NCBI GenBank assembly: GCA_046545795.1
Contig: JBKGZD010000002.1
Span: 1-48,024 of the forward strand
Direction of reading: 5' to 3'
Length of the DNA stretch: 48,024 nt
From: Bacteroidales bacterium
GTDB lineage: Bacteria; Bacteroidota; Bacteroidia; Bacteroidales; UBA12077
Positions 14,158 through 24,174 of this stretch are shown piece after piece (within the stretch, counting starts at the first letter, position 1; every line of letters starts with the position of its first letter). The notes under the pieces were generated by a model that was not told the origin of the DNA, did not search any database, and saw nothing but the letters and a program-made list of their open reading frames with translations. A program made the translations under genes and the position numbers.

Positions 14158-14642
14158 TGTTCTGATATTTTTGCTTTTTCTATATTAATGCCAAAATCCT
14201 TTATATTTTTGAGTGGATTTGTTCTCATTGCTTGCTGAACATCAATAGTATAAGTTCCACTTTTGGGGAAACGTATGTATTGTTTATAGGGCGCAGAATA
14301 TTCAAAAATGTTTCCCCATCCTTTTCCGTACCATGCGCCTCTGTCATTAGCCAGGAGCAGTTCTACTGTATCTCTGACCCTGAAGCCTTCGGGTGAGGTT
14401 GTTTCTACAAAAAGGTAGAGGTTCTGATACTGGTATTCTGAGGTATGACGAACATAAAAGAAGATGTTGTAAGCATTTACAGTATCTTCAATATTAACGC
14501 GGTAGGTAAGAATATTAGAGCTGTCCCACTTAGCGTTTTTTAAGTCTGTACTTTCATTGTATATTCTGTTAGGGTTGCAACTGTACATTAAACTGAGGAA
14601 TACAATTGCCACGATTAACCAACTAGTTTCTTTTTTTACCAT
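14154..14642 (-). CDS. gldH: Gliding motility / T9SS lipoprotein GldH
   Basis: Start is taken at the internal Met (ATG at 14642-14640). This gives MVKKETSWLIVAIVFLSLMYSC with a lipobox Cys. The mature part has the GldH-like pattern (YNIFFYVRHTSEYQYQNLYLFV...LLANDRGAWYGKGWGNIFE). The longer ORF to 14738 would overlap the upstream gene by 116 nt. Confidence 0.7.
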   Translation of the reverse strand: MVKKETSWLIVAIVFLSLMYSCNPNRIYNESTDLKNAKWDSSNILTYRVNIEDTVNAYNIFFYVRHTSEYQYQNLYLFVETTSPEGFRVRDTVELLLANDRGAWYGKGWGNIFEYSAPYKQYIRFPKSGTYTIDVQQAMRTNPLKNIKDFGINIEKAKISEQ

Positions 14643-15780
14643 TCGATTTTCGTTTTTTCCTGGAAGATTTCTTCTTTTTTTTGTTCTTAGCTTTTTTGTC
14701 AAATCGATCCAGACTTTCTTGCCCAACATTGTTTTCAAAACTTATTGCATCATCCGTAATGCTGTCTGCATCTCTCAGGGTGTCTGGCTTATTCCCCTCT
14801 TTGTTAATTGTGATGATTTGTTTTACTCTTTCTACCGATACAGGGATTAAGTTTTCTGAAGGATCGGTACTGAATGAATACCAGAGGGTTTTTTTGAAAA
14901 TATCTGTTTTTTGGTGATATGCTGTTCCTTGTTTTGTTTCCAGCAGGATTTCAGTATCCGGGAAATTTTTCTTGGCATCAATATAACAGTCTAGTTCATA
15001 ATTCAGGCAGCATTTAAGTTTTCCACACTGTCCTGCTAATTTCTGTGGATTAAGCGATAATTCCTGGTGTCTTGCTGAGTTGGTAGTTACCGATACGAAA
15101 TCTGTCAACCATGTTGCGCAGCAAAGTTCCCTGCCGCAAGATCCAATACCCCCGATGCGACCAGATTCTTGTCTTGTACCAATCTGACGCATTTCTATAC
15201 GAATTTTAAATTCTTCTGCTAAAATTTTTATAAGTTCCCTGAAGTCTACACGCTCCTCGGCGATATAATAGAATATTGCTTTGGTTTTATCTCCCTGGTA
15301 TTCAACATCTCCTATCTTCATGTCGAGCTTGAGGTTGCGGGCTATTTCTCTTGCCTTAATCATCGTTTTATGCTCAAACGAAACAGCTTCCCGCCATTTT
15401 TCAATATCATTTTCCTTAGCTTTGCGGTAAACATTCTTAAATTCTGTTTCTTGCGCGGAAATATTAAGTTTTTTTAATTTTCTGAGTACCAGCTCGCCTG
15501 TAAGGGAAACAATCCCAATATCGTGGCCTGGCGAAGCTTCCACTGCTACTATATCACCCTCGGTAAGCCTCAGTTGATTTACATTGCGAAAAATCTCTTT
15601 CCGGGTGTTTTTAAAATGAATTTCAACCAGGTCGGTAGAGCCAGGGTGAGTAGGTATATCTTTAAGCCAGTTAATGTTATTCAGCTTTGTGTAATGCTCT
15701 GGCTTGCAAAAACTACATGGCCAATTTTCAGCCTGTCGTTTTGCTGTGTCTATATATTGATTGTTTTCTTGACTATCCAT
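14623..15780 (-). CDS. PSP1 domain protein (RicT/YaaT-like)
   Basis: 385-aa ORF. The PSP1 C-terminal domain pattern is RELCCATWLTDFVSV...QCGKLKCCLNYE. It has a Lys/Arg-rich C-terminal tail. The position between holB and gldH is a conserved Bacteroidota arrangement, from memory. Confidence 0.8.
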   Translation of the reverse strand: MDSQENNQYIDTAKRQAENWPCSFCKPEHYTKLNNINWLKDIPTHPGSTDLVEIHFKNTRKEIFRNVNQLRLTEGDIVAVEASPGHDIGIVSLTGELVLRKLKKLNISAQETEFKNVYRKAKENDIEKWREAVSFEHKTMIKAREIARNLKLDMKIGDVEYQGDKTKAIFYYIAEERVDFRELIKILAEEFKIRIEMRQIGTRQESGRIGGIGSCGRELCCATWLTDFVSVTTNSARHQELSLNPQKLAGQCGKLKCCLNYELDCYIDAKKNFPDTEILLETKQGTAYHQKTDIFKKTLWYSFSTDPSENLIPVSVERVKQIITINKEGNKPDTLRDADSITDDAISFENNVGQESLDRFDKKAKNKKKKKSSRKKRKSNGKKRN

Positions 15781-15858
15781 AGTATTTGTATTTGTAACTC
15801 AATTTCCAAAATATGAGTTAGAAAAATTGGATTTTTATTCCTGCAAAATTAATGAAAA

Positions 15859-16983
15859 TTATAGTCTTAACAATTTCATTAGTTTAATGGAAAGATCGAG
15901 GAATAATGTTTTAGCGTGAGCATTCATCTGAATATCACGTGATGCAGTATTAATCTCATTGTAAATCTTTTGTGCATTGTTGTTGTTTATGAATTGTGAG
16001 AATTTAATTGAAAATTCTTTTTCTTCCTGGGTTAGAAACGTGATTTTTTCCATTTCCAGGTTCATCATAAAATTTTCTCTCACCATTCTTGCCGCATATT
16101 GCAGAAACATTCTTTGCCGTTCTCTTCCAAGTGAAGCAATTTCATCAACCCAGTTCAGAATTTCTGTAACTTTTTTTGCGTAACTCAGGCGCATTAATTC
16201 AGTAAAACGCTTAAAATTTTGCAGTTCTTCTTCGCCTGTACGGAAATAATGCAAAGCATCAATATAGCTGCCATTAGCCAGATGTACGATTTCCTGGGCT
16301 TTTTTTGTTTCTAATCCCAGGTGGTCGCTCAGAGCATTAAACATGCTTTGATCATCAATTTTCGGAACCTTAATTATTTGTGTCCTTGAAAGGATTGTGG
16401 GAAGCAGCATATCCGGATTTTCAGAAACTAAAAAGAATAGTGTATTCGGTGGTGGTTCCTCAATTATTTTAAGCAGTTTGTTGGCAGCGCTGTTATGCAT
16501 TCTTTCCGGGAGCCAAATTATCATGGTTTTGTAGGGGGATTCATAACTTTTATAATTGAGCTTTCTTATTATATTGTTACTTTCGTTGGCCGGAATGATG
16601 CCCTGTTTATTTTCAAGCTCCAGTTTTTGATACCAGTGGTTTGGATTTATATACGGGTTTTCAAGAATTGTCTCTCTCCATTCCGTAGAGTAATTATCAC
16701 TGGTTTCCGGATTTGTTTGTGAAGCTTTTTTTACCGGGTATACAAAATGCAAGTCAGGATGAATTAATTTTCTGTATTTTTTGCATGAATTGCAAATTCC
16801 ACATGAATCCTCATCCTGTTTGTTTTCGCAATTGATATATTGAGCGTAAGCAATTGCCAATGCTAATTTCCCTGAGCCATTCGGTCCTATGAAAATCTGT
16901 GCATGGCTGATTCTGTCGTCATTTACAGTCTTTATAAGTTGTTTTTTAATTTCTTGTTGACCGATTATTTCTTTGAATTGCAT
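15859..16983 (-). CDS. holB: DNA polymerase III subunit delta-prime
   Basis: Start is taken at the second Met (ATG 16983-16981; MQFKEIIGQQ...). It has the AAA+ P-loop-like GPNGSGKLALAIAYAQ and the Zn-module CGICNSCKK. An SRTQ (SRC-like) motif lies in LSRTQIIK. Confidence 0.8.
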   Translation of the reverse strand: MQFKEIIGQQEIKKQLIKTVNDDRISHAQIFIGPNGSGKLALAIAYAQYINCENKQDEDSCGICNSCKKYRKLIHPDLHFVYPVKKASQTNPETSDNYSTEWRETILENPYINPNHWYQKLELENKQGIIPANESNNIIRKLNYKSYESPYKTMIIWLPERMHNSAANKLLKIIEEPPPNTLFFLVSENPDMLLPTILSRTQIIKVPKIDDQSMFNALSDHLGLETKKAQEIVHLANGSYIDALHYFRTGEEELQNFKRFTELMRLSYAKKVTEILNWVDEIASLGRERQRMFLQYAARMVRENFMMNLEMEKITFLTQEEKEFSIKFSQFINNNNAQKIYNEINTASRDIQMNAHAKTLFLDLSIKLMKLLRL

Positions 16984-17094
16984 ATCTATTATGTCTATAT
17001 TTGTATTGTTTGTTAATCTGCGCTTTTGCAAACAGCACTTCAAAGGTAATTAAAATAAAATTTTTATATTTAACTTTAAAAAATCTACCGACTT

Positions 17095-19479
17095 ATGTAC
17101 TCCATAGACAATTATAATTTCAATGGCAAGAAAGTTTTAATGAGGGTTGACTTCAATGTCCCCCTTGATGAAAATCAGAAAATAACTGATGATACAAGAA
17201 TAGTAACTGCATTGCCATCTATTCAGAAAATTTTAAGTGAAAATGGAGCGCTGATTTTACTTACACATTTAGGCAGGCCTAAAGGGAAGTATGATGAAAA
17301 GCTTTCAGTGAAGTATATTGTTCCCTATCTGTCACGTGTGTTAGAACGTGAGGTTAAATGTGTTGATGAATGCGTTGGTGATAAAGTAAAGAAAACGGTT
17401 AGCGAGCTTAAAACAGGAGAGGTTCTGATACTTGAGAATTTGCGATTTCATCCTGAAGAAAAGATGGGAGATGCAGATTTTGCCAGGCAATTAGCTGAGC
17501 TGGGCGATGTATATATCAATGATGCTTTTGGTACTGCCCACCGTGCTCATGCATCAACTTATACCATTGCAAAATATTTTTCGAAAGATAAGATGCTGGG
17601 CTATTTGGTGGAGAGTGAAATAAAGAACATTGACAGGGTCTTGAATGAGCCAGAACATCCTTTTACAGCGATTATCGGAGGGTCTAAAATTTCAACCAAA
17701 ATTCACATCATAAAAGCTTTAATTGAAAAAGTTGATAATCTTATAATTGCCGGTGGTATTGCTTATACTTTCAGTAAGGCAACAGGCGGGAAAATTGGTA
17801 ATTCAATAGTTGAGGATGAATACATGGATGTTGCCCTTGAAATTATTGACAAAGCAAAAAAATTCAAAGTAAACCTATACCTCCCAACTGACTGTATTAT
17901 TGCCGATAAATTCGAAAATGATGCAAACATAAAGCATACTGAGATAGACAAAATTCCTGATGGCTGGATGGGTTTGGATATAGGAATTAAATCTGCTAAC
18001 CAGTTTGCTAATGTTATTGAAAACTCAAAAAAAATCCTTTGGAATGGTCCCATCGGGGTTTTTGAGATGTCCAATTTTTCTATGGGAACACTGAAAATTG
18101 CTATGGCTGTTGCATCTGCTACAGACCGAGGCGCTTTTTCTTTATTGGGAGGTGGAGACAGTATTTCTGCTGTTAATAAATATGGATTAGCCAACAGAAT
18201 AGGCTTTATATCAACTGCCGGAGGAGCACTCCTGGAATATCTTGAAGGTAAAGAACTTCCAAGTTTAAGGGCAATTAGGGAGCAACTTACAATTGATAAT
18301 TATGATTTTAATGGAAAGAAAGTATTGATGAGGGTTGATTTTAACGTACCGATGGATGAGAATTATAATGTCATTGATAATACCAGGATAATAACCGCAT
18401 TACCTACAGTTAGAAAAATTTTAACAGATGGCGGGTCTATTATTTTCCTCACTCATCTGGGAAGGCCTGGTGGTGAATATGAAGAAAGTTTGTCTTTGAA
18501 ACACATTGTTCCTTATCTTTCAAGGATTCTGGATAAAGAAATTAAATTTGTTGATGATCCTATAGGTCGAAGAGCTAAATTGGCTGCAGAAAATTTACAA
18601 CCTGGAGAAATATTATTGCTTGAAAATCTTAGATTTCATAAAGAAGAGCTTGACGGTGATGAAGAGTTTGCACGTCAGCTTGCAGAGTTAGGAGATGTCT
18701 ATGTAAATAATTCTTTTGGTACGGCTCACCGGGCTCATGCATCAACATATACAATTGCAAACTATTTTCCTCATAATAAGATGCTGGGTTATCTTGTTGA
18801 AAATGAAATCAATAATATAAACCGGGTGATCAGGCGCCCGAAAAGACCTTTTACAGCTATCTTAGGAGGGTCACAGGTATCAACAAAAATTCATATCATA
18901 CGCTCTTTGCTGCAAAAAGTTGATAACCTGATTATAGCTGGTGGAATAGCTTATACTTTTGTTAAAGCAAAAGGGGGAGATGTTGGCGATTCATTAGTTG
19001 AAGATGATTACCTGGATGTTGCAAGAGAAATCCTGAATAAAGCTGAAGAAATGGATGTTCGATTGTTGTTGCCCATTGATTGTGTAGTTGCTGATGAGTT
19101 TAGCAACAATTCGAATGTAAAACATAGTGATATTAGTAAAATTGAAAAAGGCTGGAGAGGAATGGATATTGGCATCAAATCAGCAAATAAATTTGCCGAA
19201 GTGATTGAGAGTTCATCTTCTATACTTTGGAACGGGCCAATAGGGGTTTTTGAGATGTCGAACTTTTCCAGCGGAACACTTAGAATAGCATTGGCTGTTA
19301 CACGTGCTACCGATAAAGGTGCGTATTCTTTAATAAGTGGAGGCGATTCTATTTCTGCATTGAATAAATACAACCTGGCTCATAAAGTTAGTTATGTTTC
19401 AACTGCTGGTGGTGCTCTTCTAGAGTTTATTGAAGGAAAAGAGTTGCCTTCATTAAAGGCAATTAAGGAAAATATTTAA
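17095..19479 (+). CDS. pgk: Tandem-fused double phosphoglycerate kinase (two complete PGK units in one 794-aa ORF)
   Basis: Residues 1-397 and 398-794 each contain the full ordered PGK motif set. The motifs are VLMRVDFNVP, D(D/N)TRI, THLGRP, ENLRFH, FGTAHRAHAS, GGS(K/Q)xSTK, AGGIAYTF, WNGPIGVFE, GGDSIS and STAGGALLE. There is no stop codon or ATG at the junction (18285/18286). Confidence 0.9.
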   Translation: MYSIDNYNFNGKKVLMRVDFNVPLDENQKITDDTRIVTALPSIQKILSENGALILLTHLGRPKGKYDEKLSVKYIVPYLSRVLEREVKCVDECVGDKVKKTVSELKTGEVLILENLRFHPEEKMGDADFARQLAELGDVYINDAFGTAHRAHASTYTIAKYFSKDKMLGYLVESEIKNIDRVLNEPEHPFTAIIGGSKISTKIHIIKALIEKVDNLIIAGGIAYTFSKATGGKIGNSIVEDEYMDVALEIIDKAKKFKVNLYLPTDCIIADKFENDANIKHTEIDKIPDGWMGLDIGIKSANQFANVIENSKKILWNGPIGVFEMSNFSMGTLKIAMAVASATDRGAFSLLGGGDSISAVNKYGLANRIGFISTAGGALLEYLEGKELPSLRAIREQLTIDNYDFNGKKVLMRVDFNVPMDENYNVIDNTRIITALPTVRKILTDGGSIIFLTHLGRPGGEYEESLSLKHIVPYLSRILDKEIKFVDDPIGRRAKLAAENLQPGEILLLENLRFHKEELDGDEEFARQLAELGDVYVNNSFGTAHRAHASTYTIANYFPHNKMLGYLVENEINNINRVIRRPKRPFTAILGGSQVSTKIHIIRSLLQKVDNLIIAGGIAYTFVKAKGGDVGDSLVEDDYLDVAREILNKAEEMDVRLLLPIDCVVADEFSNNSNVKHSDISKIEKGWRGMDIGIKSANKFAEVIESSSSILWNGPIGVFEMSNFSSGTLRIALAVTRATDKGAYSLISGGDSISALNKYNLAHKVSYVSTAGGALLEFIEGKELPSLKAIKENI

Positions 19480-21081: not shown

Positions 21082-22422
21082 ATGAAAGGATTTAAAGCTT
21101 ACGACATACGCGGAATTTTTAATTCAGATTTTAATTCAGATGATGTTTACAGGTTAGGATATTTTTTGCCTGAACTTTCGCCAACCAACAAAGTTTTGGT
21201 AGGTAGAGATGTAAGAGAGAGCTCTGATGAAATTTTTGCGTCATTATTAAGAGGTTTAACAGACCGGGGTGTTGATGTCTACGATGTTGGTCTTGCTACT
21301 ACACCGATGGTTTATTATCTTACAGGGAAGTATGATTTCAAACTTTCCGTACAAATTACCGCATCACATAATCCTAAAGAATACAATGGTTTCAAAATAT
21401 CAGGGGAAAAGGTACTCCCTATTGGATTTGACAATGGTCTGAACAAACTCCGGGAGTTAGTCCATTCCGGTAATATTGTTCCGGCCGATAAAAAGGGTGC
21501 ACGTATAGATTTTAATGTAACAGATGAATACGTAAAATTTTTACGAAATTATATTCCTGGAGATTTATCAAGCCTGAAAATTGGGATCGACTGTTCAAAT
21601 GGAATGGCCGGTCTGTTTATTAAAGAGCTGCTGGGAGACCAGCCTCATTATATTAATTTACAACCTGATGGTCGCTTCCCAAATCATGAACCCAACCCAC
21701 TTGAGCCTGATAATCAGGAAGATATTAAGGCGCTGGTAAAGAAAGAACAATGTGATATCGGCGTTATTTTCGATGGAGATGGTGACAGGGTTATGTTTAT
21801 AGATGAGCATGGTGAGTTTATTTCTCCTGACCTTATCATAGCGTTTTTGGGCCACTATTTTCTTACTAATCCGGGAGAAAAAGTCTTGCAGGATATCCGT
21901 AGTTCAAAATCTGTTCAGGAGTATCTGGAAAAATTTCAGGCAAATGTTTATACCTGGAAAGTGGGCAGGGCATATGCTGCATCACGGCTAAAGGAGATTG
22001 ACGGGATTTATGGGGGAGAGCTTGCCGGGCATTATTATTTCAAAGATTTTTATTATTCAGATTCCGGAATAATGGCAGCTCTGATAGTTTTAGGAATAAC
22101 TTCAAAGTTTAAGAAACAAGGAAAGCCAATTTCCTCAATAATTGGGGATATAAAAAATTATACAAGCAGCGGGGAAATTAATTTTAAAATAGAGGAAAAA
22201 CTTGATGCTATTGAGGCTGTAAAAGATTATTATATACAGAACAATAAGCCCTTAAAGATACTGGACTTTGATGGGTACAGGCTGGAGTTTGCTGATTGGT
22301 GGTTTAATATTCGTCCGTCAAATACAGAGCCCTATCTCAGGCTGATTGTTGAGGCTAAGAATGAAGAACTTCTTAATTTAAAGGTTGAGGAAATAAAAAA
22401 ATTAATCAGACCCTATTTTTAA
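21082..22422 (+). CDS. Alpha-D-phosphohexomutase (phosphomannomutase/phosphoglucomutase type)
   Basis: 446-aa ORF. It has the catalytic phosphoserine loop TASHNPKEYNG, the Mg-binding loop FDGDGDR, the sugar loop GGELAGH and the phosphate-binding loop RPSNTEP. Confidence 0.85.
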   Translation: MKGFKAYDIRGIFNSDFNSDDVYRLGYFLPELSPTNKVLVGRDVRESSDEIFASLLRGLTDRGVDVYDVGLATTPMVYYLTGKYDFKLSVQITASHNPKEYNGFKISGEKVLPIGFDNGLNKLRELVHSGNIVPADKKGARIDFNVTDEYVKFLRNYIPGDLSSLKIGIDCSNGMAGLFIKELLGDQPHYINLQPDGRFPNHEPNPLEPDNQEDIKALVKKEQCDIGVIFDGDGDRVMFIDEHGEFISPDLIIAFLGHYFLTNPGEKVLQDIRSSKSVQEYLEKFQANVYTWKVGRAYAASRLKEIDGIYGGELAGHYYFKDFYYSDSGIMAALIVLGITSKFKKQGKPISSIIGDIKNYTSSGEINFKIEEKLDAIEAVKDYYIQNNKPLKILDFDGYRLEFADWWFNIRPSNTEPYLRLIVEAKNEELLNLKVEEIKKLIRPYF

Positions 22423-23590: not shown

Positions 23591-23685
23591 AGTTTTTCCT
23601 CCTTTTTATGTTTAATGTTCATTATAGAATGAGATTAATATTTGTTAACAATATTTGCTGGAAATTGTTTTCCCTAAAAAAAGCC

Positions 23686-24174
23686 ATGTATATTTTACCG
23701 TATAAACATATAAGACTAAAGTCGCAATTAAGTTCTGCTGAGGTTCTTCATAAAATTACTCAAATAACCGATCAGGATCAAAAAAGTATTTACTGGGGCA
23801 AACGATTTTATAAGAAATTCAGTGGAGAAATAGGGGAGAGAAATTTTTTGATTAGACCCGTTGTACCCTACTGGAACATATCTCCAGTTGAAATTGAAGG
23901 ACGATTTATCTCTGAAAACATGAATGAAAGTACATTTGATTTACGTATTATTTGTCCCTATTTGAGATTTGTTATTCCATTGGGAATTCTGGCTGTGGTT
24001 TTATTCTTCTTTAATTATAGAATGACAGAAGATGCAACAATATTCTTGAGTAGCATTTTTATTGTCGTTTTTACGGCATATTTGCTGGTAAATATTCCTT
24101 TTCAGATTCAGGCAAAAAAAAGTCTCAATGACTTATTGGAGATCACTGAAGGAAAAGAAGTTAGAGAAAGCTGA
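23686..24174 (+). CDS. Hypothetical membrane protein
   Basis: ORF with two predicted C-terminal TM helices (FVIPLGILAVVLFFF; IFLSSIFIVVFTAYLLV) and no recognisable motifs. Start is set at the internal Met (MYILPY...). The 23608 start would leave only 17 bp to the divergent ferritin start. Confidence 0.35.
   Translation: MYILPYKHIRLKSQLSSAEVLHKITQITDQDQKSIYWGKRFYKKFSGEIGERNFLIRPVVPYWNISPVEIEGRFISENMNESTFDLRIICPYLRFVIPLGILAVVLFFFNYRMTEDATIFLSSIFIVVFTAYLLVNIPFQIQAKKSLNDLLEITEGKEVRES

Follow-up and report, generated by a model that had tools for sequence, protein, structure and literature searches.

Why would a bacterium carry two phosphoglycerate kinases in a single polypeptide? Phosphoglycerate kinase (PGK; EC 2.7.2.3) is among the most conserved and best-studied of enzymes, serves as the model case of a monomeric kinase that works by hinge bending, and is usually regarded as unregulated. 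The question is raised by a stretch of 48,024 nucleotides from a Bacteroidales bacterium (assembly GCA_046545795.1, contig JBKGZD010000002.1; the whole stretch is called the window below), in which one open reading frame (ORF) of 794 amino acids (aa) holds two PGK units head to tail. On balance it seems probable that this gene is an ancient, fused tandem duplicate of pgk whose product is a covalent pseudo-dimer, with unit 1 here the catalyst and unit 2 a substrate-binding partner of weakened catalysis and structural or regulatory role. What lends the PGK-PGK protein its main interest is that particular lineages have lost catalytic residues from one of the two units.

Two complete units without a linker

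An earlier note on this DNA, made from its letters alone, had described two complete PGKs joined without a linker, and the Pfam scan that it proposed gave the two matches expected. The two PF00162 stretches together score 984 bits, and the better one spans the profile from end to end (positions 1-379 of 379). The junction reads ...LPSLRAIREQ followed by LTIDNYDFNGKK, with neither a stop codon nor a frameshift between the units, and the Met codon of unit 2 is replaced by CTT, as had been read. The motif set attributed to each half is likewise present; only the form STAGGALLE-x-EGKELPSL needs amendment, x being two residues (YL in unit 1, FI in unit 2). The polypeptide has a predicted size of 87 kDa. 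A match to PF06962 (rRNA methylase) in aa 23-76 was rejected as spurious: it scores 23.8 bits against a cut-off of 22.7, but every individual stretch falls below that cut-off.

How old is the duplication? Aligned by BLASTP (aa 1-397 against aa 398-794), the units are identical at 265 of 395 positions (67%), with 87% positives and 0 gaps, which agrees with the two-thirds estimated earlier by eye. The register between the halves is shifted by one, residue k of unit 1 pairing with residue k-1 of unit 2. The DNA sequences of the halves agree at 67% of positions overall and at 43% of third codon positions, and their longest exact in-register match is 17 nucleotides; nonsynonymous divergence (dN) is 0.25 and synonymous divergence (dS) is saturated at ~2.9. 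Because dS is saturated and third-position identity is down to 43%, the duplication is old and not recent. No recent gene conversion between the halves was seen in an in-register scan.

A family with an invariant junction

A search of 5.8 billion proteins for homologues of the window double PGK returned at least 120 clusters of ~794 aa, 57-99% identical to the window protein and drawn from NCBI, JGI, ENA and Logan assemblies. Further searches brought the total of double PGKs to ~150 clusters (at least 150, clustered at 90% identity), reaching down to ~55% identity. The junction shows no length variation across an alignment of 119 double-PGK homologues, and the spacing from STAGGA in unit 1 to RVDFNVP in unit 2 is 40 residues in 112 of 112 double PGKs; in 71 single PGKs the corresponding stretch, tail plus head, measures anywhere from 38 to 67 residues. 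Size, the possession of two units and the 40-residue spacing define what is called here the Bacteroidales double-PGK family, a grouping of this analysis, and the window protein fits it in all three respects. Across the family the junction residue is Leu, Tyr or Phe, and unit 2 therefore has no conserved start codon of its own. Among GTDB contigs with one genome per species, the double gene occurs at eight loci, all of them from an uncultured 'Bacteroidales/Bacteroidetes/Bacteroidota bacterium'. One member sits on a 4.6-Mb contig (ctg97523c) whose name suggests a circular long-read assembly.

Could the double PGK be an artefact of merged adjacent pgk genes, or a polyprotein that internal initiation or cleavage splits into two enzymes? 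Spurious doubles do seem to occur: unrelated database entries with 97-100% identical halves look artefactual and often lie on short contigs (P0407, P0408 and P0441 on 3.0-3.7 kb; P0402 on 57.6 kb). Furthermore, in three NCBI genomes (L083 2816-5203, from GCA_034006085.1, L084 and L085) the annotation calls only the C-terminal 400 aa a phosphoglycerate kinase (MDD2387315.1 and others) and leaves the N-terminal unit in an unannotated gap. In these same genomes, however, the double-PGK ORF is continuous over 795 aa, and the case illustrates how annotation pipelines can hide PGK-PGK fusions. At least 150 clusters, the output of different projects and assemblers, have the same open junction. Since it recurs in independent assemblies, a sequencing artefact at the junction is excluded, and sequencing error as an explanation is essentially refuted. 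Two unfused neighbouring pgk genes were found at 0 of 87 fetched loci, and the junction codon, for Leu, Tyr or Phe, is not a conserved start codon; both observations weigh against a merged pair or a split polyprotein. Either explanation is hardly credible on this evidence.

Loss of catalytic residues from one unit

Are the two units equivalent, as the earlier note had assumed? Thirteen substrate-binding and catalytic positions were audited in 168 double proteins using human PGK1 numbering; the length (417 aa) and motifs of the reference sequence were as expected. In each window unit the basic patch for 3-phosphoglycerate (3-PG) and 1,3-bisphosphoglycerate (1,3-BPG) is complete, with R38, H62, R65, R122 and R170 present (5 of 5). 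The residues of phosphoryl transfer and of the nucleotide site (K215, K219, N336, E343, G373, D374, G395 and G396) are all found in unit 1, and all but K215 in unit 2, where Gln594 takes its place; the assumption of equivalence fails at this residue. Lys215 is invariant in single PGKs (110 of 110 diverse and 71 of 71 Bacteroidota sequences) and is also kept in all double-PGK halves other than unit 2 of the window's clade. It touches the transferring phosphoryl group in a transition-state analogue complex (PMC5594045) and has been termed an essential catalytic residue (PMC2441801, citing Flachner et al. 2005). Within the window's clade, unit 2 carries K215Q in 9 of 9 clusters, A164S in 9 of 9 and G371S in 6 of 9. 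These are the only three otherwise conserved positions to be altered, and all lie within active-site motifs (Table 1).

A sister clade of 22 clusters (P0093, P0100, P0241, P0394 and P0414-P0439; for example L083 2816-4009) is altered in unit 1. All of its members carry N336D, at the residue that binds the β-phosphate of ADP (PMC2441801), and some also R65Q, R122G, R170Y, D374N or G396E; P0439 combines N336D with R65Q, R122G, R170Y and G396E. The C-terminal unit is intact, with P0100 as the exception, and the altered unit 1 has evolved faster than its partner (72% vs 82% identity). P0100 is the sole protein in which each unit bears non-conservative changes (unit 1 R65Q and N336D, unit 2 D374E), and P0402, which lies outside the Bacteroidales family, shows the conservative R65K in either unit. 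In 120 of the 151 Bacteroidales-family clusters the two units keep every audited site and evolve at equal rates (71% vs 69% identity). The pattern fits redundancy after fusion, followed by a probable loss of catalysis in one or other unit and retention of the altered unit.

Table 1. Features of the PGK-PGK locus in window coordinates; substitutions are in human PGK1 numbering
Feature	Position	Strand	Evidence and remarks
Tandem PGK-PGK gene	17095..19479	+	ATG start, 794 aa and stop codon; ORF listing, two PF00162 stretches, at least 150 homologous double-PGK clusters
PGK unit 1, aa 1-397	17095..18285	+	13 of 13 audited residues intact; best solved-structure match 1PHP, E = 2e-121
PGK unit 2, aa 398-794	18286..19476	+	Fold and substrate-binding residues kept; K215Q, A164S, G371S; ω 0.094 vs L082
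Linker-less junction, aa 391-410, LRAIREQ followed by LTIDNYDFNGKKV	18265..18324	+	CTT (Leu) at 18286-18288 in place of unit 2 Met codon; pLDDT dip to ~70 in the AlphaFold2 model
Unit 1 Lys198 (AAA), equivalent of human Lys215	17686..17688	+	Site audit
Unit 2 Gln594 (CAG) at the Lys215 position	18874..18876	+	Site audit
Unit 2 Ser540 (TCT), A164S; NDAFG motif becomes NNSFG	18712..18714	+	Clade-specific; position 98% conserved elsewhere
Unit 2 Ser748 (AGT), G371S in the GGGD phosphate loop	19336..19338	+	Site audit
PGK3, divergent PGK-family gene, 429 aa	19581..20870	+	101 bp after the double PGK; PF00162 274 bits; ~30% identical to either unit
Phosphomannomutase/phosphoglucomutase-family gene	21082..22422	+	Four PGM_PMM Pfam domains; downstream of PGK3, conserved in L001-L003, L082, L087
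PSP1/RicT and holB (DNA polymerase III delta') genes, divergently oriented	14623..17043	-	Pfam and NCBIfam matches; synteny anchors

Predicted structure

An AlphaFold2 model of the double PGK, built with 64 homologues, has a mean predicted local distance difference test score (pLDDT) of 89.8, with a dip to ~70 at aa 391-400, and a predicted template modelling score (pTM) of 0.58. Solved PGKs each match one unit, with template modelling (TM) scores of 0.94-0.97 on the target and ~0.47 on the query, and no solved chain spanning both units is found among the structure matches to the model. Each unit is confidently predicted to be a PGK. The model that the earlier note proposed thus settles the folds of the two units; the pseudo-dimer packing it was meant to reveal is left undecided at this pTM.

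The C-terminal helix of PGK runs back to the N-domain, to which both chain termini belong. Because the linker is absent as well, the units would be tethered N-domain to N-domain, and we infer a covalent pseudo-dimer with the order C1-N1-N2-C2.

Origin and selection

The double gene descends from the housekeeping pgk. The order PSP1-holB-pgk is also found in related single-pgk genomes (L009-L011); with the same pair upstream of single and double genes, the double gene holds the housekeeping position and arose in it. Its halves are 55-62% identical to the single PGKs of Bacteroidota. In a neighbour-joining tree of double-PGK halves and 26 representative single PGKs, all halves stand apart from the single PGKs with a bootstrap of 56. 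Within the window subfamily the C halves form one clade (bootstrap 87) and the N halves group too, and the duplication is therefore older than the diversification of this subfamily. For three proteins the tree pairs the two halves as sisters (bootstrap 89-100; within-protein identity 66-78%), which may be read as old intragenic conversion or as shared (compositional) drift. Repeated fusion is another possible source of these sister halves. A single origin of the fusion seems the most parsimonious account.

Both units are under strong purifying selection. With the NG86 method dS was saturated or undefined for most pairs beyond ~90% identity, and the selection figures come from the window and its closest relative, L082, a pair for which dS is unsaturated: units 1 and 2 have dN/dS ratios (ω) of 0.088 and 0.094, respectively. 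The fusion had been called old and maintained, a view borne out by the saturated dS between the halves, by the same junction in at least 150 clusters and by ω values of ~0.09 per unit.

A third PGK-family gene downstream

Directly downstream of the double gene lies a further PGK-family gene, PGK3, which the earlier note overlooked. The PGK3 family comprises 120 clusters at 74-99% identity; without exception it shows R170Q, H169W and a gap at E343, and it retains R38, H62, R65, R122, K215, K219, N336 and D374. The ω of PGK3 is 0.075. PGK3 stands beside the double PGK at 6 loci and beside a single pgk at 0 of 72 loci. Elsewhere it occurs at L001 8612-9895, L002 8637-9917, L003 11113-12390, L006 8397-9674, L087 7001-8287 and L086 7001-8293, and the double PGK is found with no PGK3 within 6 kb at L004 and L005. 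Homologues of PGK3 with ~80% identity are present in Desulfobacterales, which suggests horizontal transfer.

The gene next after PGK3 is usually one of the phosphomannomutase/phosphoglucomutase (PMM/PGM) family. The product of the window gene falls below the NCBIfam equivalog cut-offs, with 354 against 618 for PMM/PGM and 331 against 439 for archaeal GlmM. Scans for σ70 promoters, terminators and the Bacteroidetes -7 motif TAnnTTTG gave matches at chance frequency and are uninformative on an operon or an internal promoter.

What might unit 2 do?

In the account favoured here, the housekeeping pgk of an uncultured Bacteroidales lineage would have been duplicated in tandem, fused in frame and translated as one chain. 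The ancestor would have had two catalytically competent units, because the audited residues are intact in both halves of 120 clusters. The window sublineage would then have become asymmetric: unit 1 would run the reaction 1,3-BPG + ADP <-> 3-PG + ATP, and the double PGK would serve as the glycolytic and gluconeogenic PGK of the cell. Unit 2, in which the basic patch for 3-PG and the nucleotide-binding residues persist and Lys215 is lost, is as strongly constrained as unit 1. It may bind substrates with little or no turnover and have a structural role, a regulatory role or both, which would place it on the path taken by the N-half of hexokinases 1 and 3 and by the C-half of eukaryotic phosphofructokinase. 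Several points weigh against this account. Unit 2 of the window's clade is barely faster than unit 1 (84% vs 87% identity), and some activity might survive with Gln at position 215. The adjacent PGK3 is another potential source of PGK activity, and the genome beyond the window may hold another canonical pgk. The AlphaFold2 model, with a pTM of only 0.58, decides neither the mutual orientation of the units nor a fixed interface, and the deep phylogeny is weakly resolved, given the bootstrap of 56 for all halves and the sister halves in three proteins.

Might both units instead be fully active, with K215Q tolerated or compensated? The fusion would then double the sites per chain, or give the enzyme the stability of a covalent dimer, much like the homodimers of hyperthermophiles. 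Dimeric and tetrameric PGKs are known (PMC7729029), most family clusters are intact in both units with equal rates, and the window unit 2 itself keeps R38, H62, R65, R122, R170, K219, N336, E343 and D374. This is nevertheless somewhat unlikely: Lys215 contacts the transferring phosphate and is the same in all 181 single PGKs and in every other half, and two separate clades have each altered one unit at catalytic positions, as redundancy followed by specialisation predicts. Alternatively, unit 2 might have taken up a different chemistry, with another phosphoryl acceptor or donor, and form with PGK3 and the PMM/PGM enzyme a new sugar-phosphate or bisphosphate pathway. That unit 2 retains the whole 3-PG basic patch and the adenine- and ribose-binding residues speaks against such a change, as do the loci where the double PGK lacks a nearby PGK3, and the promoter and terminator scans link the genes neither way. 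We thus hold a new pathway to be quite improbable, even though the three clade-specific changes of unit 2 all fall in active-site motifs of an otherwise constrained unit, and PGK3, found only beside double PGKs and followed by the PMM/PGM gene, combines an invariant R170Q/H169W/E343-gap signature with intact phosphoryl-transfer residues.

The redundancy account can also be extended. The protein might be an obligate pseudo-heterodimer in which unit 1 is catalytic and unit 2 senses 3-PG, 1,3-BPG or adenine nucleotides and exerts allosteric control, a bacterial re-run of hexokinase and phosphofructokinase evolution, perhaps within a module of three PGK units that includes PGK3 and the PMM/PGM enzyme. 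We regard this extension as speculative and, as a whole, unlikely. If true, it would mean that PGK, usually seen as an unregulated monomer, is regulated in a Bacteroidales lineage.

Comparison with known systems

No paper on a PGK-PGK, double or tandem PGK was found in the literature searched. A 2020 review of PGK lists monomers, archaeal homodimers and tetramers, the PGK-triosephosphate isomerase (TIM) fusion of Thermotoga, and PGKs with PAS, CNB or transmembrane modules, some of which have 'dead' PGK domains; a PGK-PGK tandem is absent from these forms (PMC7729029). The earlier remark that no such tandem has been described holds to this extent. Its companion, that PGK-TIM is the only PGK fusion known, does not, as kinetoplastids have PAS-PGK and similar forms. 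Double-PGK proteins are already present in public databases, where they are named simply 'phosphoglycerate kinase', and are undescribed in the literature searched. The conserved, linker-less polypeptide extends the known quaternary forms of PGK.

Each unit resembles a full-length canonical monomeric PGK, that of Geobacillus stearothermophilus (1PHP; 49% identity, TM 0.94, E = 2e-121), and has the same basic patch, hinge and nucleotide site. The window protein differs in having two units per chain, in lacking a linker between them and in the missing Lys215 of unit 2. With the PGK-TIM protein of Thermotoga maritima (fus; NCBIfam NF010569) it shares the fusion of PGK to another glycolytic module. 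Here, however, the partner is a second PGK: PGK/TIM is the only model on offer in the NCBIfam scan, both units fall below its cut-off (515 and 497 bits against 883, over profile positions 5-393 of 645), and the Pfam scan gave no match to a TIM domain (PF00121). The archaeal homodimeric and tetrameric PGKs (Pyrococcus woesei, Methanothermus fervidus, Sulfolobus) also hold more than one PGK unit per particle (PMC7729029). Theirs are non-covalent, identical subunits of hyperthermophiles, whereas here the halves are covalently joined, 67% identical and encoded in a Bacteroidales region of 36% G+C.

The closest parallels come from other kinases. The mammalian 100-kDa hexokinases HK1-3 go back to a 50-kDa kinase that was duplicated and fused in tandem; both halves of HK2 are active, and in HK1 and HK3 one half is non-catalytic and still binds ligands (PMC11956552). 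The PGK family spans the same range, with both units intact in most clades and one altered in two. The fold and the kingdom are different, and a regulatory role of the altered PGK unit would be an argument by analogy. Eukaryotic ATP-dependent phosphofructokinase (PFK) is a tandem-fused duplicate of a bacterial-type glycolytic kinase, in which the C-half ceased to catalyse and turned into a stabilising and allosteric module (PMC12203962). Its former active site is extensively remodelled, in contrast to the three conserved positions changed in the window unit 2. In common with HK1/HK3 and with eukaryotic PFK, the window protein shows an in-frame fusion of a complete kinase and the loss of a catalytic residue in one constrained half. 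In hexokinase and PFK such drift is known only from its end points. The double PGKs offer a natural series, from the majority of clades, with two intact units, to one clade changed in unit 2 and another in unit 1, which may show a duplicated half drifting towards a non-catalytic role.

HMMER, run exhaustively over 1.84 billion representative proteins, gave 27,640 PGK homologues. Of the 150 with the highest scores, just a few contain more than one PGK unit: the Bacteroidales family, the P0244 family and molluscan multi-PGK proteins. The P0244 family (seven clusters known; for example L081 8001-10394 on ENA ERZ21831019 ctg33840l) is a second bacterial PGK-PGK type. It resembles the window protein in its length of 797 aa, the missing linker, the Leu in place of the unit 2 Met and a housekeeping position with tpiA directly after. 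Its origin is independent. The two halves share 72% identity with one another and ~40% with the window units, and its contig has 68% G+C. The molluscan entries are predicted proteins. One from Aplysia californica (P0251; XP_035826093.1, 1918 aa) has four PGK domains and a testis-type THEG repeat, one from Bulinus truncatus (P0247) has two PGK domains, and P0392 is a further multi-PGK protein of Bulinus truncatus. Two PGK units are also seen in several plant gene models of 865-909 aa, which may result from the merging of tandem genes; like the database doubles of near-identical halves (97-100%), they were left out of account as probable mergers made in assembly or gene modelling.

Other genes of the window

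The window is ordinary chromosomal DNA. An ORF of 188 aa at 23608-24174 (+ strand), between the genes for ferritin and an Rrf2 regulator, has 0 matches in Pfam or NCBIfam. Besides PSP1/RicT and holB, the window encodes GldH, RNase HII, ferritin, PanC and PanD, a class A penicillin-binding protein (transglycosylase and transpeptidase) and a topoisomerase (Topoisom_bac and Toprim). A further ORF with KaiC and Lon_C domains is read here as a RadA-like ATPase.

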